DNA of 64,000 bases, from NCBI GenBank assembly GCA_965116925.1, contig OZ220744.1:3168001-3232000 (forward strand). The letters are read 5' to 3'. Under the pieces are notes generated by a model. That model saw only the letters and a program-made list of their open reading frames with translations. It made no database searches and was not told the DNA's origin. The translations under genes and the position numbers were made by a program. Of this stretch, positions 25,846 through 54,198 are shown piece by piece. Each line of letters begins with the position of its first letter. Position 1 is the stretch's first letter. This DNA is from Candidatus Poribacteria bacterium. Its GTDB lineage: Bacteria > Poribacteria > WGA-4E > PCPOR2b.

Positions 25846-26065
25846 TATAGTGAATTCAAAAAATAAAGAAACACTTGCGCCACCCCGGTAGGTGCGGTTT
25901 GATGAAGTTTAAGTATTTAAATCGGTAATCCCGCTTTTCCTCGAAACATACGGTAGGCGCGGTTTTCAACCGCGCTGGTGTCGCTAGCAAATTACCGAAT
26001 TATTTTTTTAATTTTCATTAACCGCACCGGTTTGGCGTGTCCCATTAATTCTACAATCTACTATA
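25846..26065. mobile_element. MITE family A (ends TATAGTGAATT...AATCTACTATA) interrupted by 117-bp family F element at 25902-26018
   Basis: Uninterrupted 102-108-bp copies at 3552, 4488, 31179, 35876, 55566, 61119. Confidence 0.85.
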
Positions 26066-26218
26066 ACTATAGGTTACGGTTCATGTTAAAAAATCATACA
26101 GCAGAAACCGAGTTTTTTCTTCAAAGCTCGGTTTCTCTTAGAATTTTACACTTTCTTGTTATATAACCCTTGTAGGTAGGACACCAATGAACTACTGAAC
26201 TAATGAACCAATGCACAA

Positions 26219-27217
26219 TTAGAACCAGCCATTCGCCCGATACCAGTCTGCCGTTTCCTGAATCCCTTTCTCGAGGAAATAGATTGGACAATAGCCGAGT
26301 TCCTTTTGTGCCTTTGTACTGTCACAGATCCAAAATCGCTGCTTTAGATCTCGCACTTTTTGGCGGTTCAAGGTTGGAGTTTGGCGCGTAATCTTCGCTG
26401 CAGCCTCCGTAAAGATCGAAATACAATCCAGCAAGAAAAACGGCACTTTCACCTTGAGCGGACGCTTTTCCAGCGCATCAGCAATGACGCGCTCAATCCC
26501 CAGCCATGTATGAATATCCCCATCCGTCAGAAAATAGGTCTCACCGACCGCACACTCGGATACAGCAGCGGTATAAATTCCTGCCACCAAATCCTTCACA
26601 TGCACCAAGCTCAACAACTTATCTGCATCACCAAGGATCGGTATCATCCCACGATTAATCATCTGAAAAAAGAGGAAAATGTCCGAATCCCTCGGTCCAT
26701 ACACTGCTGGTGGACGAATAATCGTTATCGGTAGCCGATCTGCATACTCACGAACAACCATCTCACCTTTGAGTTTGCTGCTACCGTAGTCCGTCAGCGG
26801 TTGTGGCGTAACATCTTCCGTGTTCGGTGTTGCATTGCAACTGGGACCGACTGCAGCGAGGCTGCTGCAATAGACAAACCGACCTAAATTTGTCTGTGCA
26901 CTTAAACACGCTTCAACGAGATGCTTTGTGCCTTCAGCGTTAACCCGGTCATAAATTGCAGCGTCCGGCGCTTTGGTCAAGCCGGCGAGATGAAAAACCA
27001 AATCAACATCTCGGACATGCTGTGCCAGAATATCAGTATCGTGCAGGTCACCCGTAACTATGTGGACTTGCGGCGATTTGGTGTCAAGGAGTTGGCTAAG
27101 CCAACGTAGATTACTCGTTTTGCGGATTAAGCAGGTGACCTGATAGCCTTGATCGACAAGTCGCTCGACCAGATGGCTGCCGATGAAACCTGTTCCGCCG
27201 GTGACATAAGCCTTCAT
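26219..27217 (-). CDS. NAD-dependent epimerase/dehydratase (extended SDR)
   Basis: TGGTGFIG; YGSSK; RPPAVYGP. Confidence 0.9.
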   Translation of the reverse strand: MKAYVTGGTGFIGSHLVERLVDQGYQVTCLIRKTSNLRWLSQLLDTKSPQVHIVTGDLHDTDILAQHVRDVDLVFHLAGLTKAPDAAIYDRVNAEGTKHLVEACLSAQTNLGRFVYCSSLAAVGPSCNATPNTEDVTPQPLTDYGSSKLKGEMVVREYADRLPITIIRPPAVYGPRDSDIFLFFQMINRGMIPILGDADKLLSLVHVKDLVAGIYTAAVSECAVGETYFLTDGDIHTWLGIERVIADALEKRPLKVKVPFFLLDCISIFTEAAAKITRQTPTLNRQKVRDLKQRFWICDSTKAQKELGYCPIYFLEKGIQETADWYRANGWF

Positions 27218-27255
27218 AGGCGATACCTGTACGAACTTATGAACTCCACGCGAGT

Positions 27256-28335
27256 CTACTCCTCGATCTCCTCATCTTCTTTCATTTCTCGATGTCGGAG
27301 GTCTTTCGTCAATTGTGACATCAAGACAATTCCACCAACCGCGACGCCGCAGTAGGTCGTAAAGAACCGCGTGATGAGAGCATATAGACCAATTGCCCCG
27401 GAAATTGCCCCAGAGGCAAGGAGTGGCTTCATCAGAATTGCAATTAAAAATTCTGAAATCCCGCTCGCGCCTGGGCTAGGTGCAAATAAGGTCACGAAAC
27501 CGATTATGACCTGAACAGCAATGACATGCCAAAAAGGAGCATCTCCGCCCAAGGCGCGAACAATAACATAGCCACCGACGAACCGGCTCATATAGATACC
27601 TATCGTAAAAACGAAACTCAGAGCGCAGACCAGTTTATGTTCGGTGACAAACATACGGGTGAATGCTTTGTGCTCCATTATCACGTTGTCGAGGGCGCGG
27701 ATCAGACGGTCTAGAATGTTTGCAGCAAGTCGAAATCCACGTCGTCTCGGCAGTTGGATACGGGTTAGAGGAAGCAATACTGTTTCTGGTTTGACGAGCA
27801 AAAGGAGAAAGACAAAAAGGGTAAACGCAAACATCAACAGACTATATTGACTGACAAGCGTAATCGCTTTGGGCAGAAAGGCGGGGGCGCGCTGCACAAC
27901 ATACCCTGTCGAAAGGATGAGAAACGTCAGCGTGCCAATGAAGCTGATGACACCGGTGGTCACAGTTCCTGAGAACGGCACACCCGCCCGATTAAAAATA
28001 TAGAGATGCCCTAGCCCGCCAGTTTGAAATGGTGTGATTCCTCCAATACACAGGGTTGCCAAATTGGCGCGTAGACCATGAAGGAATGTCACGTGCTCTG
28101 ACATCTTCCGAACAAAAATATAGAGACGCGCACCACCTGATAACCAATCGCAGAACATGCACAATACCGCGAGAAGTAAGAACCGCCCGTCCATTGAGCG
28201 TAAGACAACCTCAATATTCGCAGTATCGCTCCGTAAAAAGCTGAGATATAATCCAATAACTGTACATAGAATAAAGAAAAGTATGCCACGAGCAAAATTT
28301 TTCGGATTTAGCGATCTGCTAAAGAACTCTTTCAT
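27256..28335 (-). CDS. Lysylphosphatidylglycerol-synthase TM (flippase-like, UPF0104) protein
   Basis: Multi-TM; ITPFQTGG; PSPGASGISE. Confidence 0.8.
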   Translation of the reverse strand: MKEFFSRSLNPKNFARGILFFILCTVIGLYLSFLRSDTANIEVVLRSMDGRFLLLAVLCMFCDWLSGGARLYIFVRKMSEHVTFLHGLRANLATLCIGGITPFQTGGLGHLYIFNRAGVPFSGTVTTGVISFIGTLTFLILSTGYVVQRAPAFLPKAITLVSQYSLLMFAFTLFVFLLLLVKPETVLLPLTRIQLPRRRGFRLAANILDRLIRALDNVIMEHKAFTRMFVTEHKLVCALSFVFTIGIYMSRFVGGYVIVRALGGDAPFWHVIAVQVIIGFVTLFAPSPGASGISEFLIAILMKPLLASGAISGAIGLYALITRFFTTYCGVAVGGIVLMSQLTKDLRHREMKEDEEIEE

Positions 28336-29881: not shown

Positions 29882-29891
29882 TTGCTTCGTT

Positions 29892-30473: not shown

Positions 30474-30520
30474 GACAAGCCCCTCCTTCCTCGGTGAATT
30501 GCCTCATCGGTTCGAGCTCT

Positions 30521-33612: not shown

Positions 33613-34273
33613 CTGTAGGTCGATTTTCCAAAATCGACACTCTTTCATAGGCACAGGTTTCCAACCTGTACTTGCCCACAGGTAGGCGCGGTTCCCTAAC
33701 CGCACCGCATTCACTCAAACCCGGTAGGTGCGGTTTCCAACCGCACGGTTCTTCGTAGGGGTTGGGTTTCCCAACCCTTTGTTCACACACCAGAGACGAC
33801 TTCGGACTTCTGTAGGTCGATTTTCCAAAATCGACACTCTTTCGTAGGCACAGGTTTCCAACCTGTACTTGCCCACAGGTAGGCGCGGTTCCCTAACCGC
33901 ACCGCATTCACTCAAACCCGGTAGGTGCGGTTTCCAACCGCACGGTTCTTCGTAGGGGTTGGGTTTCCCAACCCTTTGTTCACACACCAGAGACGACTTC
34001 GGACTTCTGTAGGTCGATTTTCCAAAATCGACACTCTTTCGTAGGCACAGGTTTCCAACCTGTACTTGCCCACAGGTAGGCGCGGTTCCCTAACCGCACC
34101 GCATTCACTCAAACCCGGTAGGTGCGGTTTCCAACCGCACGGTTCTTCGTAGGGGTTGGGTTTCCCAACCCTTTGTTCACACACCAGAGACGACTTCGGA
34201 CTTCTGTAGGTCGATTTTCCAAAATCGACACTCTTTCGTAGGCACAGGTTTCCAACCTGTACTTGCCCACAGG
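33613..34273 (+). repeat. Tandem array of about 3.3 x 197 bp, five different GTAG hairpins per unit
   Basis: Units start at 33614, 33811, 34008, 34205; one difference noticed (33647). Confidence 0.95.
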
Positions 34274-40206: not shown

Positions 40207-41151
40207 ATGCTACTCAAATTTCAACGCATTTTTTGGTTCATCGCCCTAAGTTTTGTTTGGGTTGCCATCAGCCATGGGGAAGAAACCCTCCAAATTCTGG
40301 AGAACGAGCAGAAACTTGTCCTAACCGGAGAAATCTCCAAAGCCCTCGGCACCTATGACGAGCATCTCAAGGGAGCTGTGGAATACCTGCTCTGCGGACC
40401 GGGAGGCAAAGAATACGAAAGTATTATCGTCGTCAATAGCTCCGCGCAGGAAATCCACGACGCAATGCTCAAACTCGGCGTCGAGAGGGGCACCCCACCG
40501 ATGTACGATGAAGACAAGGATGAGATGATTGGCGCGACAGGGACCGGCGTCCTAGTGTTCGTCGAATGGGAGACAAACGGTAAGATCAAAAGGGTGCGTG
40601 CCGAAGACCTCCTCCAAGACACCCGAACCCAAAAACCGATGAAAAATGTAGAGTGGATCTTTTCCGGCTCTCGTGAGATCCCCGATCTCGACAGTGAAGA
40701 CGAGGACGCGATGATACCCCAAGCATTTGTCGGAAACGACATTATTGCCCTTAACTATATCGACGGCAGCGCACTGTTTCAAAGTCCGATCCCTTCCGAA
40801 GAAAGCCCCTACAAAAAGAACGCAGAGACACTCCCACCACTCGGCACATCGGTGAAAGTCACGATCGAGGTAAGCTCAAAAATGCAACGCTATATTCTAA
40901 TCAGCGGCAAGGTCCAAGGGGTTGGATTTCGCCATTTCACCAGACAAAACGCTATGAAACTTGGTGTGCACGGCTATGCGAAGAACCTGCCCAACGGTAA
41001 GGTGGAGGTCGTCGCCGAGGGGGATAAAGCGACCCTAGATGAATTTGTGAAAGTCCTTTGGAAAGGACCGCCTGCCTCTATAGTTAAAGATGTTAAAGTC
41101 GAAGCGCGTCCGCATAGCGGGGAGTACACCTCTTTTGGTATTAAGTATTGA
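40207..41151 (+). CDS. Exported YdjY-like domain fused to acylphosphatase
   Basis: Signal peptide; VEYLLC..GKEYES; C-terminal GKVQGVGFR..GYAKNLPNGKVE..GPP. Confidence 0.8.
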   Translation: MLLKFQRIFWFIALSFVWVAISHGEETLQILENEQKLVLTGEISKALGTYDEHLKGAVEYLLCGPGGKEYESIIVVNSSAQEIHDAMLKLGVERGTPPMYDEDKDEMIGATGTGVLVFVEWETNGKIKRVRAEDLLQDTRTQKPMKNVEWIFSGSREIPDLDSEDEDAMIPQAFVGNDIIALNYIDGSALFQSPIPSEESPYKKNAETLPPLGTSVKVTIEVSSKMQRYILISGKVQGVGFRHFTRQNAMKLGVHGYAKNLPNGKVEVVAEGDKATLDEFVKVLWKGPPASIVKDVKVEARPHSGEYTSFGIKY

Positions 41152-41181
41152 GAGATAATTCATTAACGGAAAGGAACAATA

Positions 41182-41946
41182 GTGCGGAAAGAATTCATCA
41201 AGTTTGTTCATAAACTTGCGGCGGAAAGTGCCGAAGTCATAAAGCCGTATTTCGCCGCTTTCGACCTTGAAGTTGAGATGAAAGAGGACGAAACGCCTGT
41301 CACCGCTGCGGATCGAGGGGCAGAGGAGATCATGCGCGATCTGATCCGCAAAGCGTTCCCCGACCACGGGGTCATCGGCGAGGAGTTCGGAAACGAAAAT
41401 GAAACCGCCGAGTTTGTCTGGGTGCTGGATCCGATAGACGGCACAAAATCATTTACAAGTGGATGCCCACTTTTTGGAACACTAATCTGTCTCCTGCACG
41501 GGGGACAACCCGTCTTGGGGGCAATCAATCAGCCCATCTTAGAGCGGTTGTGCATCGGCGATAACAATCAAACAACCGTCAACGGACATCCGGTGCATGT
41601 CCCAGAGACCGACACACTTTCTGAAGCAATCCTGCTGACAACGGATATTCTGAGTATTGGTAAATATCAGAATCGGGCGGGATTTGAGGTTCTACTTCAT
41701 CAAGCGAAAATGTTCCGTACATGGGGCGACTGCTACGGCTATCTATTGCTCGCATCGGGAGGTGCCGACATCATGCTCGACCCCATCGTGAATCCGTGGG
41801 ATGTGCTTCCGGTGGTTCCAGTAGTTCGTGGTGCGGGTGGAATTGTTACCGCGTGGGACGGCAGCGATGTCGTTCAAGGGGATTCGTGTGTGGCTGCAAC
41901 CCCGAATCTACACCCCCATGTCTTGGAAATCCTAAACGCCAACTGA
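41182..41946 (+). CDS. Inositol-monophosphatase family, HisN-like histidinol-phosphatase
   Basis: PVTAAD; GEE; WVLDPIDGT; WGDCYGY; PWD. Confidence 0.88.
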   Translation: MRKEFIKFVHKLAAESAEVIKPYFAAFDLEVEMKEDETPVTAADRGAEEIMRDLIRKAFPDHGVIGEEFGNENETAEFVWVLDPIDGTKSFTSGCPLFGTLICLLHGGQPVLGAINQPILERLCIGDNNQTTVNGHPVHVPETDTLSEAILLTTDILSIGKYQNRAGFEVLLHQAKMFRTWGDCYGYLLLASGGADIMLDPIVNPWDVLPVVPVVRGAGGIVTAWDGSDVVQGDSCVAATPNLHPHVLEILNAN

Positions 41947-42066
41947 TAGCTTGATTCATGTTAAGAAATCCCGAATCGTAGGGGCGGGGTTTCCCCGCCC
42001 GAAAAGGAACCAGTTGTTTTCACGTTTTACGCATCACGTTTCACGTCCTTAAGGAGTTTATCGGCC

Positions 42067-43260
42067 ATGAAAATAAGGCGACTACTGCTCTCTTTTATGC
42101 TGTTGCTATGTTTGCAATTCCCGTTCACCGTCTCTGAAACCCAAGCCTTTATCGCGAGACATTATACCCTTCAAGAGGTTCTGGCTGAATGCAGCAACAT
42201 CGTTTTCGGGACTGTCACCTCAGTCAATCAGAAACGCATGACCGCTAAGGTGAAAGTCGAAGAAAACCTCAAGGGAAAAAGCGACTTCCAAGAGATTAAA
42301 ATTAACCTATCCACCGGTCAAGGCAACTTTCCGGAAAAGATGATCCAAAAATTTGAAGCAGGAAAGCCGATTATTATCTTCTATAAGAGGGAAGGACGGC
42401 GAATCCCCAGCCTCGGACATGTTGACGGCACCTGGTTCCAAACCTTTGCCCAAGACCGATCAGATAAAAGCCGTGTTTGGTGGAATTTCACCCATATCGA
42501 AATCTATATGCACCGGACCTACAAAGGTTCAACGCCCGACTTTCAGCGGGTTGTGCGGGATACGCTAGCTGGGAGAATCAAGCCTTCCAATAAAAGGTCC
42601 TCAAAGGTGGAGTCCCTCGCCGAAGCATCTACCGGTGCGGTGCGTGTACTGGTCCTCTCCGGCAATCGTTCTGATGTCGAATTTCCCACCATTTCTGCCT
42701 TCGATTCGATTGAGGAACATCAAGTCGTTTACCAAAGAACGAAAGATCGCAACCTACCAACTCTCAACTACGCAGACATTCTCTGGTTGGGGCAAGGGGA
42801 AATCTGCGAAGATAAATATCGCTTGAACAAGGAACGGGAGAACAAGATCAAGGCGTTTGTGAAGGATGGCGGTGTGGTTATCGTTTCAGGCCAAGACAGC
42901 GATGATGATCGACCATGTCCGACAGGCTGGACCCCCGAACCGATGAAGGGAGTGGAACGGCAGGGGCGTAGCGACTTTGAGCCAACACGAGCCGCAGGCA
43001 CATTGTTTAGCGAACCGAATGAAATCCAGTTCGGCGATGTATTCCTTGACGACGCATGGACGAAATGGAGCGATAAATATACGATCCTTGCCACCACAAA
43101 TGATGGGAAAGAAATTGCCTTTGCGACCTTGGAATACGGCGAAGGACTGTACCTCATCACAAGTCTCCAAAACGAAACCAGTGCCAACGTTTTTATCAAT
43201 CATCAGATAATAGAGAACCTAATTTATTATGCTGTCAAATGGCTAGATGATCAATCGTAG
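42067..43260 (+). CDS. Exported two-domain hypothetical protein (C-terminal GATase-like fold possible)
   Basis: Signal peptide; ADILWLG..IKAFVKDGGVVIV. Confidence 0.65.
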   Translation: MKIRRLLLSFMLLLCLQFPFTVSETQAFIARHYTLQEVLAECSNIVFGTVTSVNQKRMTAKVKVEENLKGKSDFQEIKINLSTGQGNFPEKMIQKFEAGKPIIIFYKREGRRIPSLGHVDGTWFQTFAQDRSDKSRVWWNFTHIEIYMHRTYKGSTPDFQRVVRDTLAGRIKPSNKRSSKVESLAEASTGAVRVLVLSGNRSDVEFPTISAFDSIEEHQVVYQRTKDRNLPTLNYADILWLGQGEICEDKYRLNKERENKIKAFVKDGGVVIVSGQDSDDDRPCPTGWTPEPMKGVERQGRSDFEPTRAAGTLFSEPNEIQFGDVFLDDAWTKWSDKYTILATTNDGKEIAFATLEYGEGLYLITSLQNETSANVFINHQIIENLIYYAVKWLDDQS

Positions 43261-43303
43261 CGTCGACTTTGTTTCAGAAACTCATTTCGTAAAAGTGCTC
43301 TTT

Positions 43304-43541
43304 TGTACCACAATCTGTTAGATTGTGATCCCAGTCCGCAAACTAACAGTTCGCGCTACATCTGTCAGATTGCCGATGATTACAGCATTTACCTGTACCA
43401 CAATCTGTTAGATTGTGATCCTAGCACGCCAACTAACAGTTTGCGCTACATCTGTCAGATTGCCGATGATTACAGCATTTACCTGTACCACAATCTGTTA
43501 GATTGTGATCCTAGCACGCCAACTAACAGTTTGTGCTACAT
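43304..43541 (+). repeat. Tandem 2.6 x 90-bp array of an inverted REP doublet
   Basis: Units at 43304, 43394, 43484; single copies near 6750, 45204, 54067, 58863. Confidence 0.92.
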
Positions 43542-43571
43542 TTTAATGAACTAATGAACTAATGAACCAAC

Positions 43572-45104
43572 ATGATTAAATCAAAAGCAAAGCCCTCAAT
43601 TTTGGCGTTGGTATTTTTGTGTCTCACCTTCAATTCAGCGGGGACAGCCCATGCGGTTATCCCGCAACTCTTGGGGCCCCTTTCAGCCCTGCTCAGTATT
43701 ATCCCTCAGCTCCTCGCGATAATCGGCGTTGCCTTTTTAACTGCATTTGTGTTCGCCCGCGATTGGCTAAAAGGATTGTTTTACCGTATCCGCGAATCTG
43801 CCCTGCTCACGACAATTACCCTGATACTTCTCCTCGCGATCATTGGGGCAGGCGTCTGGGTGATTTATGGAACTCTTCAATCCGGTCAACCGTTCGCCAC
43901 AACAATGGGGGAGGTTCGGCTTGAGAAACCGCTCGTAAAACAGTCTTGGCCTGCGTTTCGAGGAGGTGTTACGCGTACCGGACAGCTCGACAACTTGCCC
44001 GGGCCAACGCATCCCACAATCTCATGGTTGTTCAAAGGGAAAGGCAATGTTATCGTAGATTTTCCTTCCTCGCCGGCGGTGGTTGGGTCTCAAGTCTATA
44101 TCGCTGCCGCACAAGGATCGTTCTTTTCCAGCGGAGGCGCGGTCTACTGCCTTGATGCAGATAGCGGGGTTGACCTCTGGCGATATGATACGTCGGTTCA
44201 GATTTTTTCTTCACCAACAGTTGTTGGGGGACGTGTTTATGTCGGCGAAGGGTTTCACCAAGACGCAGATTGCCATCTCCATTGCCTCAATGCCGATAAT
44301 GGGCGTATGATTTGGACATTCAAAACGGCGAGCCATGTGGAATCAACCCCCTTCGTCAGTCAAGGAAAGGTCTACTTCGGTGCGGGGAACGATGGTGTCT
44401 ACTGCCTTGACGCGCGTAAAGGAAAAATAATCTGGCACTATCCATCTATCCATGTAGACATGTCGCCAGCGGTATGGAGGGGGAAAGTCTACTTCGGGAC
44501 CGGCTACGGCGAATATCGGATCTACGCTGTTGATGCGAATAGCGGTGCAGAGGTTTGGTCAGAACGCGTGGATTACCCCGCTTGGGGGAGTCCAAGTGCC
44601 GATGGCGATGTGGTCTTTTTCGGACTCGGCAACGGTAACTTTATTGAGAGTGCCGCAGTGCCAAAAGGACGAATTACCGCCCGTAACGCCGAAACAGGAG
44701 CGCAGATCTGGGGGTATGAAGTGGAAGATTCCGTCCTTACAGCGGTCGCCTATCGTAACGGATTTGTCTATTTTGGCTCACGAGATGGGGGTGTCTACGC
44801 ACTCAACGCCGCTGACGGTGCACTAAGTTGGAGAGCCGATATTGGATATTCGGTCGTGTCCTCACCGGCGGTCACAGAAAGTTCGGTATACGTCGGCGCA
44901 GATAACGGCGTAATCTACAAAATCGACATCAACAGCGGTCGCGTAGTGTGGCAGTTTGATACAAACAAAATTACCGGCGGCAGCCCAATCTACTCCTCAC
45001 CGGCTATCGCCAATGGCAAGCTCTATATTGGATTGAAGGATTACCTCTTATGCCTTGGCGGAGCAGAGACGATCGAGGAAACGCCAAAACTTGATGATCA
45101 GTAG
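43572..45104 (+). CDS. Membrane-anchored PQQ-like/BamB-like beta-propeller protein
   Basis: N-terminal TMs; WPAFRG; repeated SSP.V..G.VY.G..YCLDA..G..W. Confidence 0.88.
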   Translation: MIKSKAKPSILALVFLCLTFNSAGTAHAVIPQLLGPLSALLSIIPQLLAIIGVAFLTAFVFARDWLKGLFYRIRESALLTTITLILLLAIIGAGVWVIYGTLQSGQPFATTMGEVRLEKPLVKQSWPAFRGGVTRTGQLDNLPGPTHPTISWLFKGKGNVIVDFPSSPAVVGSQVYIAAAQGSFFSSGGAVYCLDADSGVDLWRYDTSVQIFSSPTVVGGRVYVGEGFHQDADCHLHCLNADNGRMIWTFKTASHVESTPFVSQGKVYFGAGNDGVYCLDARKGKIIWHYPSIHVDMSPAVWRGKVYFGTGYGEYRIYAVDANSGAEVWSERVDYPAWGSPSADGDVVFFGLGNGNFIESAAVPKGRITARNAETGAQIWGYEVEDSVLTAVAYRNGFVYFGSRDGGVYALNAADGALSWRADIGYSVVSSPAVTESSVYVGADNGVIYKIDINSGRVVWQFDTNKITGGSPIYSSPAIANGKLYIGLKDYLLCLGGAETIEETPKLDDQ

Positions 45105-45246
45105 CGTAGTATAATGCTAGGGTCTGTTGACATTTGCAAACCCAACTTTATTTTTCATCGGAAAGCCTCTCCAGCAGAAGGTTATGTCGTAAAGGCAATC
45201 TTTTGTACCACAATCTGTTAGATTGTGATCTTCAGTCCGCAAACTA

Positions 45247-46152
45247 TGGTAGATGATAGAATTACTGATACATTTGAATAATATCCTCAATAGACATTTC
45301 TGTTTGATATTGTTGGATTCGCTTTATATTAGCAAAATCGTGTTCAATCGGATTGTAATCCGGGGAATAAGGGGGTAAAAACATCAGACTCGCCCCTGAA
45401 GCCTCTATTAACTGTCGGGTCTTTGGCGTTTTGTGAAGTCGTGCATTATCAAGGATTACGACGTGTTTTGAAGTCAAGCGTGGACATAACTGCCCGGCTA
45501 ACCAATCATTGAAATCGTTGGCTTTGCAACTGCCTTCAAATAACCGTGCCGCAGTGAAGGTATCTTCAAAACGTGCGGCAATAAGTGTGGTGGTCCGAGT
45601 GCGTTGACTGGATATAAGGTCAAACACGGGTGTGCCTAAAGGCGCATAGCCATACCGTCTATAACCGTCGTCTCGAAAGCCACTCTCATCGGCATAAACT
45701 ACGGATTTACCAACGATTTTGACTTGTTCGAGTTGTTGACGATAGGCGTGTCGTTTTTCATCGCACCGCTCCTTATAACCGAGGGTCTTTTTTTTTCGCG
45801 TGTACCCTAGCCGTTTGAGGCTATACCCTATACAGAAGGTCGACACTCCAAAATGAACGGCGCGTTCTTTGAGGGTCTGGTCTGGAAAATCAGCAACATG
45901 TTGTTTCAGCGCATCATAATCAATAGACCGGGGCCCTCGGGGACCGGGGCGTTGATAAGCGAATGGATCCGGGGCGTTTAGCCACTTATAGATAGTGGTC
46001 CGTCCGACGTTAAACCGTTTAGCGGCTTCTGTTTTGCTGCCGCCGGCTTGTATGAAATCAAGGACGCGTTTGCGTAAATCGGGTGAATATCTCATAATAC
46101 TTATATCGTAACACATTTCTAAATAATGTTCACTTATTTATATTATCTACCA
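45247..46152 (-). mobile_element. IS630-family insertion sequence (906 bp)
   Basis: TIR TGGTAGATGATA/TATTATCTACCA (11/12 match); TA on both flanks. Confidence 0.92.
45262..46095 (-). CDS. IS630 DDE transposase, single reading frame
   Basis: YSPDLRKR HTH; DESG; LDNARLH; LPPYSPDYNPIE. Confidence 0.93.
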   Translation of the reverse strand: MRYSPDLRKRVLDFIQAGGSKTEAAKRFNVGRTTIYKWLNAPDPFAYQRPGPRGPRSIDYDALKQHVADFPDQTLKERAVHFGVSTFCIGYSLKRLGYTRKKKTLGYKERCDEKRHAYRQQLEQVKIVGKSVVYADESGFRDDGYRRYGYAPLGTPVFDLISSQRTRTTTLIAARFEDTFTAARLFEGSCKANDFNDWLAGQLCPRLTSKHVVILDNARLHKTPKTRQLIEASGASLMFLPPYSPDYNPIEHDFANIKRIQQYQTEMSIEDIIQMYQ

Positions 46153-46415
46153 TAAATGAGTTTTAAGAAATTAAACGGGTAATTCTATATTGCTCCCAGA
46201 CCCGGTAGGTGCGGTTGGAAACCGCACCGGACATCGCTCGGAAATTACCCAATTAATAAATTAATCTTCATACAGTTTGCGCTACATTTGTCAGATTGCC
46301 CGATGACTACAGCGTTTGCCGAATTAGCTATATCAAAATGTCAACACGCCCTAGGTGCTCGCTGATAAACCAAGCGTTGGCAACCGGCGCAAGAGTCGGG
46401 AGTTGGAATTCCCTC

Positions 46416-47144
46416 CTACACTTCATGTTGGGGAGGAATGCTACGATCAAGCGATTCAATCTCAGTCGGTGTTAAGAAACGATATTTCCCAATCGCAAGC
46501 CCTCCCAACGTAAGCGATCCAATCCCTACCCGTTTGAGATGTGCGACCTCATGACCTACGGCGTGGAACATACGCCGAATCTGTCGCTTCTTTCCTTCAT
46601 GGATAACTACCTTGAATTGTGTTTGCCTTTCTCTTCTCCCAATTTGGTTGACTTTCGCCGAAGTGATTGCCCCCCCCTCAATTTCAATTCCCTCCCGCAA
46701 TCTTTGAATCTTTCCTCGATTTGGCTGCCCCTCTACCCATGCAATGTACGTTTTCTGGATCTCATGGCTCGGATGGAGGATTCTATGTGCGAAATCCCCA
46801 TCGTTTGTCATTAGCAGCAGTCCCTCCGTATCAAGATCCAACCGTCCAACTGGATAGATCCGCTCGGATATATCACGCACCAACGCCATGACCGTCGGAC
46901 GGCCGCGCTCATCGCGCACCGTTGTTACGTAGCCTGCCGGTTTGTTCAGCATCAGGTAGATCCGCTTCGGCTTCCCACGTACCGGTTCACCATCAAATGT
47001 AATCTCAGCCCCTTGTGGATCGATGTGGGCACCGGGAATCAACACCTTCTCACCGTTGACAGAGACCCGTCCTGCGGAGATATGTTTCTTCGCATCCCGT
47101 CGAGAAGCGATGCCGGATTCTGAAAGGAATTTTTCGAGGCGCAT
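46416..47144 (-). CDS. RsuA/RluB-family rRNA pseudouridine synthase
   Basis: S4 domain; NKPAG; GRLDLDTEGLLL; EGKKRQIRRM. Confidence 0.93.
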   Translation of the reverse strand: MRLEKFLSESGIASRRDAKKHISAGRVSVNGEKVLIPGAHIDPQGAEITFDGEPVRGKPKRIYLMLNKPAGYVTTVRDERGRPTVMALVRDISERIYPVGRLDLDTEGLLLMTNDGDFAHRILHPSHEIQKTYIAWVEGQPNRGKIQRLREGIEIEGGAITSAKVNQIGRRERQTQFKVVIHEGKKRQIRRMFHAVGHEVAHLKRVGIGSLTLGGLAIGKYRFLTPTEIESLDRSIPPQHEV

Positions 47145-47369
47145 TTTTTCGTGCACTATCCCTAAAATAGGTAGACATGAGGAAGGAAAAGCAGTAGAAT
47201 AACCCAAGTTACCATCTTAATTGGGAAGAAATTTTCGTAAGGAACGCAGATCTGCGTTCCCTACACAGGTTGGTATCTACTTTCGCTCCAGAGAAGCGAT
47301 ATGTCTATAGAATCACAATCACCCAATCCCTGCGCTCCAGAGGAGCACCATGTATAGAGTTCATTAGTT

Positions 47370-47586
47370 TAACCCAAGTTGCTAGGTTCTGTTGACATTT
47401 AACGGTCCGTAGGTTGGGTTGAACGGGAACCGTGAAACCCAACAATGTCCCCCTCCGTAGGTCGGGCATCTTGCCCGACTCATAGCCCCAGCGGGGCGAC
47501 ATGTGTATAGAAAAAAGGATAAAACCAGCCAGCCCCAGCGGAGCGACATGTATGTGGCATCGTAACGCAACTAGCAACTTAGGTTA
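47370..47586. mobile_element. MITE family C copy with several hairpin cargos
   Basis: TAACCCAAGTTGCTAG...CTAGCAACTTAGGTTA; GTT direct repeat. Confidence 0.75.
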
Positions 47587-47720
47587 GTTTAATGAATCCG
47601 AGGCTTGCGTTAGAGTAAACGGTATGTTCAGAAATTTTATTGTGATGGAAAACTACAAGATATGTCAAGTGGAAAATAGATGGATTAGAGATGTTTAACT
47701 GAAGCTGTAAGGAGGGAAAA

Positions 47721-48557
47721 ATGCGACTTGGCGGACCAGTATTTGGTGAAATTTCCAATCCTGACGATTGGGCAAAAGCAGTCAAGAATCACGAATACAG
47801 TGCTGCCTACTGCCCTGTCAACTCAGACAGCGATGAGTCAACCATTGACGCATACATCGAAGCCGCGAAAAAAGCGGATATCGTCATTGCGGAAGTCGGC
47901 GCATGGAGCAACCCAATCAGCATTGATGATACAGAACGCGAGGCTGCGCTAGAAAAATGTCGGACGCAACTCGCGCTTGCCGATCGGGTCGGTGCAAACT
48001 GCTGCGTCAACATCTCCGGCTCACGAGGACCCAAGTGGGACGGTCCTCATCCCGATAATCTAACAGATGATACCTTTGATCTGATCGTCGAGAGCGTCCG
48101 CTCAATTATCGATCACGTGAAACCCACGCGGACGTTCTACGCGCTCGAAACGATGCCGTGGGCTTACCCCGAAGGACCCGATAGCTACCTGCGTTTACTC
48201 AAAGCCATCGATCGGGGGCAGTGTGCCGTCCACCTTGACCCGGTGAATATCATCAACGGTCTGGAACGCTACTACCACAGCGGAGATCTCATCCGCGACT
48301 GTTTCGCGAAACTCGGCGCGCATATTAAAAGCTGTCACGCAAAGGACATCGCTCTTGCCGATACCTTAACCCTTCACCTCGATGAGACCCGTCCCGGTCT
48401 CGGTGGGCTTGACTATGCGACATATCTGCGTGAACTGGATCGACTCGATCCGGATGTACCGTTGATGCTTGAACATCTCCCATCTGCCGAAGAATACGCG
48501 CTCGGTGCTGAACATATTCGGTCGGTCGCTGATGAAGTCGGTGTCACGATTCGATGA
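47721..48557 (+). CDS. Sugar phosphate isomerase/epimerase (AP-endonuclease-2 TIM barrel)
   Basis: LETM; HLDPVN; CHAKD; MLEH. Confidence 0.85.
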   Translation: MRLGGPVFGEISNPDDWAKAVKNHEYSAAYCPVNSDSDESTIDAYIEAAKKADIVIAEVGAWSNPISIDDTEREAALEKCRTQLALADRVGANCCVNISGSRGPKWDGPHPDNLTDDTFDLIVESVRSIIDHVKPTRTFYALETMPWAYPEGPDSYLRLLKAIDRGQCAVHLDPVNIINGLERYYHSGDLIRDCFAKLGAHIKSCHAKDIALADTLTLHLDETRPGLGGLDYATYLRELDRLDPDVPLMLEHLPSAEEYALGAEHIRSVADEVGVTIR

Positions 48558-48589
48558 ACTTTGTGATAAATCCTTGGTATTTTACGATT

Positions 48590-48700
48590 GGCTCATATTA
48601 AAAAAGCACAAAATACTGAAAAAACCGTAGGCGGGGCATCTTGCCCCGCCCGTCCGTGCCAAAAACTCGGTTTCTGTTGCACGCTTTCTTAACATGAACC
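48590..48700. mobile_element. MITE family G (GGCTCAT[AG]TTAA...TTAACATGAACC)
   Basis: Perfect 8-bp direct repeat TTACGATT; relatives at 26078, 60980-61228, 6668, 41955. Confidence 0.8.
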
Positions 48701-48721
48701 TTACGATTTAAGGAGGATAAA

Positions 48722-49726
48722 ATGACCTCAATAGGATCTGGATTCAAAGCGGCTGTTATTGGCTGCGGCGGTATGGGACGAGGCCATATAGCAAAAGCGA
48801 AAAGTCTGGGAATTGAACTGGTCGGCTATTGCGATGAGATTGGAGAAAAAGCCGAGGAAGCGTTGGCGGAATTTGGCGGTGCCTATGCCACAACCGACGC
48901 CGACCGCATCATGCGCGACGATTCCATTGATCTGATAGTAATCGCCACCCACCACGATGCACACCATCCGCTCGCGCTTGCTGGAGCGCAAGCCGGTAAG
49001 CACATTCTCTTGGAGAAACCGATGTGTGTCACCCGCGCTCAAGCCATCGAAGTGGCTGAGATGGTGGAGCGGACCGGGGTCAAACTTGTGATCAATTGCA
49101 AGTTCCGAATCGCACCCACAGCGCAAAAGGCACGCGAACTGCTAGCCCAACCGCGCATGAGCCACGGTCAGCTAGCGATGAACGATTCCGGTGCGAGCGG
49201 TAGTACATGGGTCTGGCATGCGGACGATGGTGGTGGTCTGTTGATTAGCACCGCCGTCCATACCATCGATCTGCTCACATACCTGATGGATAGCGAGCCG
49301 GATCGGATCTATGCCGAAGGGCGAATCTTTGGGCAAAACAAAGGCACCGCCGGCTACCCTGACGGGCTGGTGGGGACAATTCTCTGGAAGAGCGGCGGAC
49401 TTTCCACAGTAATTAGCACCGATCAGGGCATGAACCCATTTGTGTCCAAGTGGTTCCATCAGATGTGGGATGGCGAGCGTAGCGCAGTCTTTTCCTCTCA
49501 CATGACGCGCGTCGACTTTGGTGGATGCGAAATGGACTATCTGGACGCACGGAAATTACCAGAGGCGGAGATAGCCAAAGCGTCAATGATGGTCAACCTA
49601 TTGGCGGCGATTCGGACGGACGGAGATACCCTGTGCAACGCCCGCGACGGTGTGCGCGCCGTGTCTATATGCAACGCCTTAGATGAAGCCGCTCGCACCG
49701 GCACCCCCCAAACTGTACCGAACTAG
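48722..49726 (+). CDS. Gfo/Idh/MocA oxidoreductase
   Basis: IGCGGMG; GKHILLEKP; GGLL..HTID. Confidence 0.9.
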   Translation: MTSIGSGFKAAVIGCGGMGRGHIAKAKSLGIELVGYCDEIGEKAEEALAEFGGAYATTDADRIMRDDSIDLIVIATHHDAHHPLALAGAQAGKHILLEKPMCVTRAQAIEVAEMVERTGVKLVINCKFRIAPTAQKARELLAQPRMSHGQLAMNDSGASGSTWVWHADDGGGLLISTAVHTIDLLTYLMDSEPDRIYAEGRIFGQNKGTAGYPDGLVGTILWKSGGLSTVISTDQGMNPFVSKWFHQMWDGERSAVFSSHMTRVDFGGCEMDYLDARKLPEAEIAKASMMVNLLAAIRTDGDTLCNARDGVRAVSICNALDEAARTGTPQTVPN

Positions 49727-49904
49727 AACACGATCTCACCGCTTGTGAGAACTGGGGTGCGAGGGGATAAAGCTGTTTTTCCGTTCGTTCATGTATTAAC
49801 TTACTGGTTCATTTAGCCCCAGCGGGGCGACATGTCTATAGTACACGGATAAACAAATATCCTAAAGCCCCAGCGGGGCGACATGTGTATCCGAAGGGTG
49901 GAAA

Positions 49905-51374
49905 TTAATTTGCATTGCCAGATTCATAAATTCGCCAAGCCCCATCCTCTTTCCGCATCTTAATGAGTATATCTGATGGTGCCGGTCTGTTCTCCATTTC
50001 CACTGCTATCCTCTCCATTTCCGCTTCTGCCCCCGGAATTTCCGCTTCTGCCGCCGCTTGGTGGTCTTCCGGTAAATTCTGCATCACCATTCCTATCAGT
50101 TCTCCGATCTGTAGTTTCGGCTCTCTCAACCGGAAATAGAATTCACCGCCTACATATTCTCTGCTCACAATTTCTGCCCTACCAAGCATCTGGCTAAGCA
50201 TCCCCTCGGTGAACTGCTGCGCCTCCGACCCTGCCTCAGCGATTTCTGCTTTCGTGTCTTCTACGGCTGGGATACTACTTTCTATATCTTCCCTGACAGC
50301 TCCTGTCACGAGTGGGAGCATTGCCTTAACGTCGAGATTCTTATACGCCTCCAGATAGGCGTTCATCACATCTTCGGCAGACCGACCCTCATCGTCTAAT
50401 GACGTGGAGGTATCGGTGGAGAGGCTCTGGTCCGCCTCTGGCTCAAATTCTGCCTCCAACATGAGTTGTACTATATCTGCTTCTTCAAATTGATCCAAGG
50501 AATTGTCAACCGGCTCCGTTCCTTCTGCGGACGCTGCAGGGGCAATTTGTGACGGATTGTCCCTGTTTTCTGTATTTTGAGCGGAATCAGTTTGTGCTAC
50601 TAATCCTTCAGAGCTGTTTCGTGGACGTGGCGTGCCATCCTCCCACGGCGATAAATACACCCGCTCCTCGACTATGGGCGCATTCATCTGGCGGACACCA
50701 ACAAAACCGATAAAAATCAGCACAATCAGTGCTGCTACACCAACCGTTATCTTAGGCACCGTTCCAACTTTCATGACAGTCAGACCTCCCGAATATATTT
50801 TTTTTAGTGTCATTGTGGGAGAAACGAATATGCCGGTGAGAAGATATTGCAACCGTTTGGAGAGTTGCCGCTTCGCACGCGACAGCCGAGACGCAACTGC
50901 GTCATACGACAGCCTATGCGTGTTTGTCAGCTCGTCGTAGCTTGCACCCTCCAGATAGAAGGCACGGGCAATTTCCCTGTCTTTCTGCGGAAGCGTCTCT
51001 ATTGTCCGACGAATCAACTCTCTCTGTTCCTGTTGTATCAATTGCTCATCAGGTGAATCCTGCGTTTGAAGTATCTGTTCGTTTACTTCATCAAGGGATA
51101 CAGTCTCGCCCCTCTGTTTGCGGAGCCACTGCCGTGCACAATTCCGTGTAATCTCAGCTAACCAACTCTTGAATTTAGTCGCATCCTCAAGCTGCCCTAA
51201 TCCTTGATAGGCGTTGAAGAAGGCGTCTTGCACCACCTCTTCGGCATCATGGGCATTATCCACGATTCCGACTACGATTGCATAAACATAGGCGTAATAC
51301 TCCCGCATCAGATCCGCAAATGCCCCTTCATCCCCAGTTTGGGCGCGATAGATGAGCACATTCTCTTTAGCCAT
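49905..51374 (-). CDS. ECF sigma factor fused to TM helix and acidic extracytoplasmic domain
   Basis: AEEVVQDAF..FKSWL (region 2); SRLSRAK (region 4); TM VGVAALIVLIFIGFVGV. Confidence 0.88.
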   Translation of the reverse strand: MAKENVLIYRAQTGDEGAFADLMREYYAYVYAIVVGIVDNAHDAEEVVQDAFFNAYQGLGQLEDATKFKSWLAEITRNCARQWLRKQRGETVSLDEVNEQILQTQDSPDEQLIQQEQRELIRRTIETLPQKDREIARAFYLEGASYDELTNTHRLSYDAVASRLSRAKRQLSKRLQYLLTGIFVSPTMTLKKIYSGGLTVMKVGTVPKITVGVAALIVLIFIGFVGVRQMNAPIVEERVYLSPWEDGTPRPRNSSEGLVAQTDSAQNTENRDNPSQIAPAASAEGTEPVDNSLDQFEEADIVQLMLEAEFEPEADQSLSTDTSTSLDDEGRSAEDVMNAYLEAYKNLDVKAMLPLVTGAVREDIESSIPAVEDTKAEIAEAGSEAQQFTEGMLSQMLGRAEIVSREYVGGEFYFRLREPKLQIGELIGMVMQNLPEDHQAAAEAEIPGAEAEMERIAVEMENRPAPSDILIKMRKEDGAWRIYESGNAN

Positions 51375-51495
51375 GGCGCTTCATTCCTCCCTTACACCCT
51401 ATCAAGATGCAGCTCTAAGATTTTTTTGGCACTTTTTTCACTCTGAAATGTCATTCTAGGAGATTTTTTGCCCATTTTTTCACGAAGCCAAAAAT

Positions 51496-51526
51496 AAAAA
51501 GGCGAATGGACGGAACCATTCGCCTT
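51496..51526 (-). terminator. Rho-independent terminator
   Basis: GGCGAATGG/CCATTCGCC stem; T-run on the minus strand. Confidence 0.7.
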
Positions 51527-51567
51527 CTTGTAACATGAGCCTTAAGGTGAATACTTTCAAAAACGAC

Positions 51568-52449
51568 TTAACCCATCTCAGATAACCGCTTCTCCAGCGC
51601 AACCGCCTCCTCTAACTGTTTCATATAACCGATAGAATGCGTTAAATAGGTGTTAGGGTCCGGCCTTGCGGGCAGGCAATCCAAGGAGAGATAGCCCTCA
51701 AATCCGATTGCATCAAGTTCCCTGATCACACCCGTGAAATCAATATGCCCCATCCCCGGCATTTGACGGTTGCTGTCCGCTAGATGAATCAGCATCAGTC
51801 GGCGTTCCGCCCGTCGGATCGCATCGGGGACGGAGACATCCTCAATGTTCGCATGGAAAAAGTCCACCATCACGCCCAAGTTCTCCTGCCCAACTTCATC
51901 AGCGACACCAACGGCGTCAACCACACTGTTCATAAACCCTGCATAGCCTTCAAACCGATTCACCGGCTCCATCGCCACCCGTACACCACGGTCAGCAGCG
52001 TAACGGCTGATTTCGCGTGCGGACTGAACAAAGTTTTGTCTCACCGTTAGGAGCGGAACGTCAGAAACCGGGTACTTCGGTTCAGCCGGGCAGCAGCAGA
52101 TTTCATAGACGGACACATTCAGATCCACCGCTAAGTCTGTACATTTTTGGGCGTAACCTATCGCATAACGCCGAACCACCTCGTCGGTGGAAGCCAAATC
52201 GCGCACCTCGCCGGCGTGCCACGTCGCCCACGCCCCAAGCAGCGCCGCAATCTCCAACCCCATCGACCGCGCTATCTCAGCAATTTCCCGATACCGTTCT
52301 ATCTCGATTCGATCCGGTTCTGCGGTGAGATCTATGCCATCATAGCCAGCGTTCTTGACCAATTCAAGCACCGCACGCGGTTGCTCCCAAATGTCTAACC
52401 CGAAGGTTGCTAGTGTGTCAACGATTACCGAGTATTTCAATTGAGCCAT
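51568..52449 (-). CDS. Sugar isomerase/epimerase (ketose 3-epimerase-like TIM barrel)
   Basis: EPVNRFE; DFFHANIE; HLADSNR..PG.GH. Confidence 0.85.
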   Translation of the reverse strand: MAQLKYSVIVDTLATFGLDIWEQPRAVLELVKNAGYDGIDLTAEPDRIEIERYREIAEIARSMGLEIAALLGAWATWHAGEVRDLASTDEVVRRYAIGYAQKCTDLAVDLNVSVYEICCCPAEPKYPVSDVPLLTVRQNFVQSAREISRYAADRGVRVAMEPVNRFEGYAGFMNSVVDAVGVADEVGQENLGVMVDFFHANIEDVSVPDAIRRAERRLMLIHLADSNRQMPGMGHIDFTGVIRELDAIGFEGYLSLDCLPARPDPNTYLTHSIGYMKQLEEAVALEKRLSEMG

Positions 52450-52569
52450 CGTAATCTCCTTCTATTTTTCCATTGACTTGCTAACCGATTGCTTGTATCA
52501 TCACTCCAAATACAAGCATTCAATCACTTTCCACCTTTTTATATCCATTCCTATGAAATGAGTCCAGAC

Positions 52570-53979
52570 ATGACAAAAACCGATCTCTGCTACTTGTCAG
52601 CCCTGCAACTGCGGGAACTATACCAAAAAGGCGAGGTGTCACCGGTTGAGGTAACTGAAGCGGTACTCCGCCGCATAGATCAACTCAACCCCAGCCTCAA
52701 CGCCTTCATCACGACAACGCCAGAACTCGCGCTTGAGGGAGCGCGCCGTGCCGAACAAGCCTACCAAACTGATGAATCTCCGCCCTTGTTGGCTGGCATC
52801 CCGACCTCAATAAAAGACCTTGTGGCAATGACAGGGATTCGGAATACCCGCGGTTCCTTGCGTTACAAAGATTCCGTATCAGACTTTGATGCACCGATCA
52901 TCGAGCGGTTTCACGAAGCCGGTGCCGTACTACTAGGTAAGACCAATCTGCCTGAATTTGGGTGGAAGGGGGACTCAACGAACCGTATCATCGGTTCTAC
53001 TCATAATCCGTGGAAACACGGTCGTACCGCTGGCGGTTCTAGCGGTGGTGGGACGGCAGCACTTGCCGCAGGGTTAGGACCCCTTGCCCAAGGCAGCGAC
53101 GGCGCAGGCTCGATTCGTATTCCGGCGAGTTTCTGCGGTATTTACGGACTCAAACCCTCGTGGGGAATCATCCCGCAGTATCCTCCCAGTGCCGTCGAAC
53201 TGCTCTCCCACATCGGTCCGATGACACGGACAGTCGCCGATGCAGCACTCATGTTGAACGTCATGGCTGGAGCCGATCCACGTGACCGTCTCTCGATTCC
53301 TACGGAGACCGATTATTTAGCCGCTCTGGAGGGAGATATTGCAGGGCTGCGCGTTGCGTGGTCGCCCGATCTGGGTTACGCACTCGTCGATCCGGAGGTC
53401 CGTGAAATCGTTACGAAAGCCGCACTGCGTTTTGAGGAACTCGGCTGCCACGTTGAGGAAGCCCACCCCGGTCTCGAAGATCCGTGGGAGGACATCGTTC
53501 ATATCATCTGGGGATCCACATTCGCCGGCTTACATCTCGATAACCTAGATGCGGTTCGCGATCAGATCGATCCGGGCTTAGTGAGAGTGATAGAACAGGG
53601 ACTCCAACTTTCGGGGCCTGAAGTTGCCATAGCCTACGCAAAGCGTAATGACTACTACGACGCTTGGCGGCAATTCATGGAGCAATATGACCTCCTGCTA
53701 ACCCCTGCGCTGCCTGTGACAGCGTTTCCAGCTGGCGATGATCATCCGGGACAAATCGACGGCCAACCGACGACCTATCTGAGCTGGACAGCGTTCACCT
53801 ATCCGTTCAACATCACCGGTCAACCGGCGGCGTCCGTTCCATGCGGTTTTGCCAGCGATGGGCTGCCGGTTGGCCTGCAAATCGTCGGACGATGGCGTGA
53901 CGATGTAACCGTACTCCGCGCCTCCGCTGCCTTTGAGAAACTCGCGCCCTGGGCAGATAAACGACCCCCACTCGACTAG
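52570..53979 (+). CDS. Amidase-signature family amidase
   Basis: IKD; GKTN; GGSSGG; GSDGAGSIR; start placed downstream of TTGACT-17-TATCAT at 52473-52501. Confidence 0.92.
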   Translation: MTKTDLCYLSALQLRELYQKGEVSPVEVTEAVLRRIDQLNPSLNAFITTTPELALEGARRAEQAYQTDESPPLLAGIPTSIKDLVAMTGIRNTRGSLRYKDSVSDFDAPIIERFHEAGAVLLGKTNLPEFGWKGDSTNRIIGSTHNPWKHGRTAGGSSGGGTAALAAGLGPLAQGSDGAGSIRIPASFCGIYGLKPSWGIIPQYPPSAVELLSHIGPMTRTVADAALMLNVMAGADPRDRLSIPTETDYLAALEGDIAGLRVAWSPDLGYALVDPEVREIVTKAALRFEELGCHVEEAHPGLEDPWEDIVHIIWGSTFAGLHLDNLDAVRDQIDPGLVRVIEQGLQLSGPEVAIAYAKRNDYYDAWRQFMEQYDLLLTPALPVTAFPAGDDHPGQIDGQPTTYLSWTAFTYPFNITGQPAASVPCGFASDGLPVGLQIVGRWRDDVTVLRASAAFEKLAPWADKRPPLD

Positions 53980-54081
53980 AGGTTGGGACAATTATGTATA
54001 AGGTCCACCAGCTCAATGAACTAATGAACCTATCTTCTATAGCCCGTAGATTGGGTTCCGGTCTTTTGTACCACAATCTGT

Positions 54082-54198
54082 ATGAAGTTTAAGTATTTAA
54101 ATCGGTAATCCCGATTTGCCTCCAAACACACGGTAGGCGCGGTTTTCAACCGCGCCGGTGTCGCTAGCAAATTACCGAACTGTTTTTTTAATTTTCAT
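54082..54198. mobile_element. MITE family F (ATGAA...TTCAT, 117 bp) inside a REP hairpin loop
   Basis: Close copy of 25902-26018; splits CACAATCTGT/TAGATTGTG. Confidence 0.85.

Follow-up and report, generated by a model that had tools for sequence, protein, structure and literature searches.

Transposons of the IS630/Tc1/mariner superfamily are the textbook case of strict integration at TA dinucleotides, and they are widely used as genetic tools. Among the insertion sequences (ISs) that occupy repetitive extragenic palindromic (REP) sequences, IS1397 lands in the loop of the REP with a duplication of 3-4 bp, and IS110-type elements are said, in a 2024 bioRxiv preprint, to choose their sites through a guide RNA. 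The stagger quoted for DDE recombinases is 2-9 bp. In the accessible parts of the two accounts, the TA target rule is documented for ISY100 of Synechocystis (PMC2170065) and for Mos1 (PMC5481204). The survey of REP-occupying ISs by Tobes and Pareja 2006 (PMC1525189), in the portion of it available here, covers the IS3, IS110, IS4, IS256 and IS5 families and does not list IS630. IS1272, a member of the IS1182 family from Staphylococcus, uses inverted-repeat targets of unrelated sequence, which the excerpted text takes as a sign that structure is recognised, with a cruciform model (PMC5678879). Here we examine a family of short repeats, family F, found in a stretch of 64,000 nucleotides (the window; contig OZ220744.1, positions 3,168,001 to 3,232,000) of the genome of a Candidatus Poribacteria bacterium, a sponge symbiont whose genome is a single contig of 6.47 Mb with 49% G+C. 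An earlier note, made from the window's sequence, had proposed that F inserts into the loops of REP hairpins by reading their structure, and we compare this proposal with a census of F in the whole genome and in related genomes.

Three copies of F lie in the window, all on the plus strand, all intergenic (3/3) and all where the earlier note had placed them: copy 1 at 25902..26018 and copy 2 at 54082..54198, 117 bp each, and copy 3 at 46156..46271, which is 116 bp long and belongs to a divergent subfamily, 'el3'. The 28-nt left end of the family, ATGAAGTTTAAGTATTTAAATCGGTAAT, has exactly two matches in the window (25902 and 54082) and was found in 0 of 100 shuffles. The terminal inverted repeats (TIRs) of about 28 bp are imperfect, with 21 of 28 positions matching in copy 1, and the centre of the element holds a GTAG-headed hairpin, GGTAGGCGCGGTT-TTC-AACCGCGC; both features had been read correctly from the window. 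In copy 1 this REP-like hairpin is GCGCGGTT TTC AACCGCGC (25953..25975, plus strand), and it is itself a target of further F and IS insertions. No Rfam family matches anywhere in the 64-kb window.

Each of the three copies splits a hairpin. Copy 1 interrupts a hairpin of the type we call REP-A: the left arm GGTGCGGTT and the loop bases TG stand at 25891..25901 (plus strand) with the GTAG head just upstream, and the remaining loop base T and the right arm AACCGCACC stand at 26019..26028 (plus strand), so that the site reads GGTGCGGTT TG[F]T AACCGCACC, with the loop TGT broken and no extra base. Copy 2, which is identical to a copy at genome 3156734, interrupts REP-B, with the left arm CACAATCT and loop bases GT at 54072..54081 and a duplicated T, the loop base T and the right arm AGATTGTG at 54199..54208 (both on the plus strand). 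The site, CACAATCT GT[F]TT AGATTGTG, implies a loop GTT and one extra T; the split hairpin had been recognised before, with one T left out of its right flank. Copy 3, whose own central hairpin is GGTGCGGTT GGA AACCGCACC, is followed directly by the loop bases AC, the right arm AGTTTGCG of a REP-D hairpin and the inverted head CTAC (46272..46281, plus strand). Its left arm, CGCAAACT, is not at 46147-46155 and is found about 910 bp away, at 45238-45245 (with the following loop base A, 45238..45246, plus strand), because another element, IS-B, inserted later between the arm and F. IS-B is a canonical IS630-family IS of 906 bp with ends TGGTAGAT (45247..46152, minus strand; 284-aa transposase at 45262-46116), and it landed at the TA of CGCAAAC-TA-A. 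Removing IS-B and one TA restores CGCAAACT AA[F]AC AGTTTGCG, which is the site that had originally been described.

A blastn search of the genome with the three window copies gave 260 non-overlapping places, 97 of which are full-length; the 163 partial matches are mostly stand-alone copies of the central hairpin only. A perfect inverted repeat of at least 6 bp directly flanks 82 of the 97 full-length copies, compared with 128 of 20,000 random positions (0.64%; binomial p about 1e-163), and in 71 of these 82 exactly 2 nt lie between stem and element on each side. When at least 6 of 8 pairs are required at this 2+2 offset, 91 of the 97 pass. The six failures are of three kinds. Three copies, among them window copy 1, occupy such hairpins and are one base short on one side; in two others, window copy 3 and the one at genome 3121734, a TA-type element has since come to separate F from its left arm; and the copy at genome 764933 has one arm only, next to a rearranged partial copy. 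Allowing for mismatches, the one-base offset and later TA-type insertions, 96 of 97 copies have both hairpin arms, so that, far from lying mostly outside hairpins, which would have spoken against the earlier proposal, F is found almost exclusively within them. The family has been active recently, as seen from seven groups of identical copies with 2 to 8 members each and from copy 1, whose sequence recurs, 100% identical, in another hairpin at genome 6197564-6197680.

What do these sites look like before insertion? Uninterrupted versions of the same hairpins, with 3-nt loops, are present elsewhere in the genome and serve to reconstruct the pre-insertion sites. REP-A, GTAGGTGCGGTT-NNN-AACCGCACC, has 127 empty copies with the loops TGT (49), TCC (31), TGC (10), TTC (8), TCT (7) and others. 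For the remaining families a single loop dominates the empty copies: TTC in 47 of 67 for GTAGGCGCGGTT-NNN-AACCGCGC, GTT in 34 of 35 for REP-B (GTACCACAATCT-NNN-AGATTGTG), GTT in 17 of 18 for REP-D (GTAGCGCAAACT-NNN-AGTTTGCG) and TCC in 102 of 115 for GTAGGCAYRC-NNN-GYRTGCC. Occupied sites read TG[F]GT, TC[F]CC, GT[F]TT, AG[F]GA and others. The base before the element equals the base after it, a junction we write XY/YZ, in 74 of 91 insertions (p about 3e-29 against an expectation of 0.25), and the duplicated base Y may be C, T, G or A. A loop XYZ thus becomes XY[F]YZ, which is a 1-bp target-site duplication (TSD) of the central loop base. The '0-1 extra base' of the earlier note was therefore real, and can now be restated as a regular 1-bp duplication. 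Its siting of F at hairpin centres also holds, while the qualification 'near a TA' turns out to be incidental, many targets having no TA (for example GCGCTCC AG[F]GA GGAGCGC). We rejected a TA requirement for F on these two grounds, the duplicated base being any of the four and such sites lacking a TA.

A separate observation concerns 4-nt loops. In REP stems that are also present at least five times with 3-nt loops, 41 of 42 of them have the form XYYZ (TCCT, GCCT, GGGA and others), compared with 166 of 596 4-nt loops overall. We considered these as footprints of excision and rejected them as such, because most come from two REP families, whose loops may be native, and because TGGT, the footprint expected from the commonest target loop TGT, is absent. 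They could be native loops of the two REP families or single-base duplications.

An IS with ATGAA ends, which the earlier note had named as something to look for, exists in this genome. This element, IS-F, is a 1241-bp member of the IS630 family with ATGAAG ends, present in two copies. One copy (genome 4122211-4123451) lies in a nest at 4122104-4123578, where a divergent F holds a second F in its central hairpin and the second F in turn holds the IS; the other (genome 1430426-1431666), 98.6% identical to the first, lies in the central hairpin of an F seated in REP-A. The left end of IS-F matches the right end of F at 27 of 28 positions. F itself is 116-117 bp long, non-coding, present in 97 full copies and shares its TIRs with an autonomous IS, as expected of a miniature transposable element with inverted repeats (MITE). 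IS-F carries, as IS630 elements of about 1-1.3 kb do, a single open reading frame (ORF), here of 384 aa, between the ends ATGAAGATTAA...GGTAAT in inverted orientation. Its transposase belongs to the IS630 family by profile (NF033545, 161.1 bits against a cut-off of 100) and matches PF13358 DDE_3 (E = 1.3e-19) as well as HTH_32, HTH_29, HTH_28 and HTH_23. The only significant profile matches are to IS630; a sub-threshold match to IS481 scores 29 bits against a cut-off of 224, and the protein is neither an IS3-type OrfAB nor an IS110-type DEDD transposase. Where IS-F departs from its family is in the target, since TA insertion with TA duplication gives way to the duplication of one base of any identity.

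The catalytic motifs of the IS-F transposase (YQD191EF, QD273N and NPIE334) are nearly invariant in 12 members of its clade. The usual spacing from the second D to the E in IS630 transposases is about 34-35 residues; in IS-F it is 60, because of an insert of about 26 aa, TTTFAKPTPPNWTGKPSNKIGKLAKLP, which is kept in the 12 clade members (61-100% identity) and absent from the IS-B transposase. A sequence search found 665 homologues with E at or below 1e-10, and the best 120 of these are nearly all 384 aa long, many of them on contigs of about 1241 bp. An AlphaFold2 model built from 12 sequences had a mean predicted local distance difference test (pLDDT) score of 53.9, falling below 50 in the region of the insert, and was not used. 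A PDB sequence search with the transposase returned no solved relative and only one spurious match, to a Sel1-repeat protein.

The same behaviour can be followed in other genomes. Related IS loci in public genomes all come from metagenome-assembled genomes (MAGs) of Candidatus Poribacteria. In one of these, OZ242381.1, the IS (72% aa identity) has 10 full copies; all 10 occupy hairpins, which represent at least five stem types, and every junction is XY/YZ. A further three related loci give a less tidy picture: one lacks part of its left end, another is a chimera and the last reads GC/GA within an imperfect stem. Matches to F itself occur in 22 of 31 related genomes, the source genome counted, and near-full-length copies in some of them only. 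We took 20 full-length copies from four other genomes of the genus; perfect stems of at least 6 bp flank 16 of them, and 11 also show the 2+2 offset with a duplicated base. More distant relatives from metagenomes, at 39-48% identity, have inverted-repeat flanks at the loci L057, L060, L061, L062 and L065 and weakly at L059, and no such flanks at L058 and L064.

Taken together, we put the probability at roughly 0.85 that F is a non-autonomous MITE of IS-F and that both integrate at the centre of inverted repeats spaced by 3 nt, with a 1-bp TSD and a target choice that apparently reads structure. Of this, the site, the 1-bp duplication and the IS630-family parent are shown by the sequences, as is the recent activity. 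The earlier proposal of structure-directed targeting of REP loops is thus supported by the fraction of copies in hairpins, by the 3-nt loops, by the diversity of stem families described below and by an IS with matching ends. Mechanistically, the junctions fit a reaction in which each 3' end of the transposon would attack, on its own strand, the phosphate on the 5' side of the central base of the loop, and in which repair after end joining would duplicate the central base only (XYZ to XY[element]YZ). The transposase most likely reads shape or two-fold symmetry, either at the tip of an extruded hairpin or cruciform or at the strongly bendable centre of a palindrome, which would agree with the 147-degree bend that Mos1 gives its target (PMC5481204), and the module that re-aims it may be the conserved insert of about 26 aa that separates the second D from the E. 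As F has a REP hairpin at its centre, every insertion breaks up one landing site and adds another, placed at the tip of a longer stem. In a single-stranded fold, copy 1 and its split arms give one long stem (-29.5 kcal/mol, z = -5.6) whose apex is a REP hairpin with a 3-nt loop. About ten cases of F inside F are present, and both IS-F copies lie inside F; nested, 'Russian doll' structures (REP > F > F > IS) arise because each F insertion supplies a new hairpin at its apex.

A wider version of this proposal is that IS630-lineage transposases have swapped TA for shape, docking on hairpin or cruciform tips of any sequence and joining with a 1-nt stagger, shorter than the 2-9 bp quoted for DDE recombinases, that the 26-aa insert re-aims them, that the spare REP carried by the element rebuilds the landing pad and so couples it to the RAYT/REP system of the host (RAYT, REP-associated tyrosine transposase), and that the trait extends to the relatives at 39-48% identity. 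We offer it tentatively, at a little less than even odds.

Several observations weigh against these proposals. Of the 91 junctions, 17 are not XY/YZ (e.g. TT/CC, TG/TC, TG/CA), and both full IS-F copies of the genome are among the exceptions (AA/AA and TG/TC). In several of the 17 the left and right flanks clearly belong to different hairpins, and the exceptional junctions may be products of recombination between copies or of palindrome correction. The more distant relatives have 1 nt per side and no XY/YZ, with borders that are less certain in single loci, so that the clade may not follow a single targeting rule. For none of the F copies did we recover an empty site, orthologous or allelic, the pre-insertion state being reconstructed from paralogous hairpins: around copies 1 and 2 (1.5-1.7 kb around each searched in 20 genomes of the genus) the flanking genes align, the intergenic repeats, including the host REPs, are not conserved, and no empty allele was found. 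Likewise, contigs of four sequencing runs over window positions 40001-60000 break at repeats, and no joint crosses an F copy. Usage of hairpins is uneven, with only 3 insertions in the GGCAYRC family against its 115 empty copies, and there is a weak bias in the stems, G never being used on the 5' arm at the two positions beside the loop. Since most of the available hairpins belong to REP families, a taste for REPs themselves is not fully separable from one for any hairpin with a 3-nt loop. Finally, we infer from sequence that structure is recognised, where the strands are transferred and what the 26-aa insert does.

The alternative that survives best accepts the site and the 1-bp stagger and differs in what is recognised: two-fold symmetry or bendability of the duplex, instead of an extruded hairpin, a cruciform or a single-stranded hairpin at the replication fork. 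It draws on Mos1, for which the accessible part of that study gives a target bend of about 147 degrees and a preference for palindromic sites that bend easily (PMC5481204), and a dimeric transpososome is itself two-fold symmetric; moreover, genome data are unable to tell the duplex from the extruded state. On the other hand, symmetry in B-form duplexes of unrelated sequence would be unreadable by a protein that does not read bases, and hairpins with 7-9 bp in the stem and 3 nt in the loop are of a sort prone to extrusion or folding. A 3-nt loop is implied at 71 of the 82 perfect-stem sites, whereas only 715 of the 2221 perfect 8-bp hairpins of the genome (loops of 0 to 8 nt) have one, although REP families dominate the supply of hairpins and the enrichment is therefore not an independent test. 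We consider recognition of the duplex unlikely, but a reading to be taken seriously.

Could F instead recognise the sequence of one REP family, as has been reported for IS1397 and ISKpn1, with the other hairpins being diverged members of that family? We clustered the stems of 99 sites (89 of the source genome and 10 of a second genome) and found that REP-A accounts for 46 of the 99; the core of F is REP-A-like, and there is a weak YY-NNN-RR bias at the junction of stem and loop. Multi-copy REPs predominate among the targets, with at least five empty copies of the same stem pair for 71 of 97 sites. Yet the 99 sites fall into 18 unrelated stem clusters, among them GGTGCGGTT, CACAATCT, GCGCTCC, CCCCCCTT, CATCGTT and GCCGAGTTT, which share no sequence and have no invariant position. 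The GCGCTCC family has no GTAG head, and a few targets are unique hairpins that also have none, such as CATCGTT-TAT-AACGATG and GCCGAGTTT-TTT-AAACTCGGC. Targeting of a single REP family is thus very improbable, and since the stems have no sequence in common, the transposase most likely recognises the shape or two-fold symmetry of the DNA.

Another explanation would do away with targeting altogether, by making the palindromic flanks the outer parts of longer TIRs of F subfamilies, or by having F carried inside REPs by the tyrosine transposase of the RAYT system. Flanks and TIRs do form one long inverted repeat. RAYT genes are also present: the genome has five matches to Y1 transposases, two of which are paralogous RAYT genes (genome 701212-701685 and 328867-329388; NF047646, 121.5 and 117.8 bits against a cut-off of 80) with REP-A beside both. 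And F recurs as part of a larger block. Copy 1 sits in a TA-flanked MITE, 'O' (25849..26063, borders approximate), which carries the REP-A hairpin; O is about 100 bp long, its ends (TAGTGAATTC... / ...ATCTACTA) resemble those of IS-B, and the O+F block of about 225 bp has 17 other matches in the genome at 91-96% identity. Against all this, identical F sequences occur in different hairpins, intact versions of these hairpins number from tens to more than 100, and F takes both orientations within one REP type (41:10 in REP-A, 8:1 in REP-B, 1:4 in REP-D and 4:7 in the GCGCTCC type). Hairpins without GTAG heads are used too, and a full IS with an IS630 transposase occupies the same kind of site in 10 of 10 cases in another genome. 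This explanation, too, we regard as extremely improbable.

The genome also offers an internal control for the TA rule. IS-B has four copies that are 100% identical, with TA/TA flanks in 4 of 4, and TA duplications are therefore not being erased here. At genome 3121632-3121733 a copy of O lies between the left arm and the F at 3121734, having used the same TA at the REP-D/F junction as IS-B did beside copy 3. One genome thus holds both rules, TA for IS-B and the hairpin centre for IS-F and F. Ordinary IS630 behaviour, with a TA target, a 2-bp TSD and borders misplaced or TAs degraded, would suit the strict TA use known for the family, at least in the available text of the two reports (PMC2170065; PMC5481204), and the fact that several REP loops adjoin a TA, but it has next to no chance of being right given duplicated bases of all four kinds, TA-free sites such as GCGCTCC AG/GA GGAGCGC and the intact TA/TA flanks of IS-B. 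IS-B also has three diverged relatives, with about 65% identity, in the regions of genome 5.14, 5.51 and 5.84 Mb; there the transposase match comes in two adjoining pieces.

Some further observations concern F and the REPs around it. The REP-A upstream of the second RAYT gene (328867-329388) is occupied by an F copy (genome 328680-328796). Flanks that combine two hairpins are seen around F at genome 3156669-3156869, 4640041-4640222 and 4018040 and at locus L070; in one example half of an outer F, the left one, stands opposite an unrelated REP arm, CCAACTGCGCC, and in another F has a REP-B arm to its left and a REP-D arm to its right. Such mixed flanks look like the result of recombination between dispersed F copies. 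Within the window, positions 43300-43540 hold an array like a bacterial interspersed mosaic element (BIME), three units of 90 bp in which REP-B (GTACCACAATCT GTT AGATTGTG) faces an inverted REP-D (CGCAAACT AAC AGTTYGCGCTAC); a contig of one sequencing run skips 43355-43534 (two units), and the length of the array therefore varies between strains. At window 33650-34260 a tandem repeat recurs every 197 bp, in 3-4 units that each contain three different 3-nt-loop hairpins (ACAGGTT TCC AACCTGT; GTGCGGTT TCC AACCGCAC; GGGTTGGG TTT CCCAACCC). On the scale of the genome, stand-alone REP-A copies are mostly on the plus strand from about 0.15 to 3.35 Mb, mostly on the minus strand from about 3.45 to 4.73 Mb and on the plus strand again from about 5.17 Mb, a bias that may follow the replichores.

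If the proposed targeting is true, a natural branch of IS630 that ignores TA shows that the target choice of the superfamily can be re-aimed, and it provides a compact, single-protein transposase that selects its sites by DNA structure. Two kinds of selfish DNA are linked here, in that a DDE transposon uses, carries and regenerates REP hairpins, and the system shows how the intergenic regions of these sponge symbionts are filled by nested repeats. The roughly 100 dispersed 117-bp homologies also appear to drive rearrangements, as seen in the chimeric flanks.

How, then, does this system compare with those already described? Like the canonical members of the superfamily (IS630, ISY100, Mos1), IS-F has an IS630 profile, DDE_3 and an N-terminal helix-turn-helix, a single ORF in about 1.2 kb, TIRs of about 28 bp and abundant MITE derivatives. 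Unlike them, it separates the second D from the E by 60 residues in place of about 35, and where the canonical elements, in the accessible parts of their descriptions, use almost only TA with a 2-bp stagger (PMC2170065; PMC5481204), IS-F and F use hairpin centres and duplicate 1 bp of any base. Our literature searches, which did not cover ISfinder or TnPedia, turned up no description of hairpin targeting or of a 1-bp duplication for any element of the IS630 family. With IS1397 and ISKpn1 (IS3), IS621, ISPpu9, ISPpu10 and ISPa11 (IS110) and ISRm22 (IS4) the family shares insertion into REPs or palindromic units (PMC1525189, as far as the available portion extends). The likeness to known REP-targeting ISs that the earlier note had invoked is therefore sound in function, but those ISs have transposases of other families and, in the same portion of the survey, are each tied to one REP type of their host (PMC1525189), whereas F uses many unrelated hairpins. 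IS1272 comes close in the diversity of its targets; according to the excerpted account (PMC5678879), it removes the target stem-loop and leaves no TSD, whereas F keeps both arms (96/97), duplicates the central base and so does not replace the stem-loop, and the transposase of IS1272 is of another family than that of IS-F. The targets and the core of F share the GTAG-headed palindrome form tabulated for REPs by Nunvar 2010 (PMC2817692, in the part of the tabulation available), and the target hairpins are REPs by their GTAG/GTAC heads, their high copy number and the RAYT genes with adjoining REP-A. In contrast to the REP/REPIN-RAYT system, F has DDE-type TIRs and an IS630 parent; the REP is what it carries and what it targets, and does not serve to move it. 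Judged from its sequence relationships, then, the pair of F and IS-F is an IS630-family IS with its MITE in which the choice of target has been re-aimed, apparently to the structure of the DNA.

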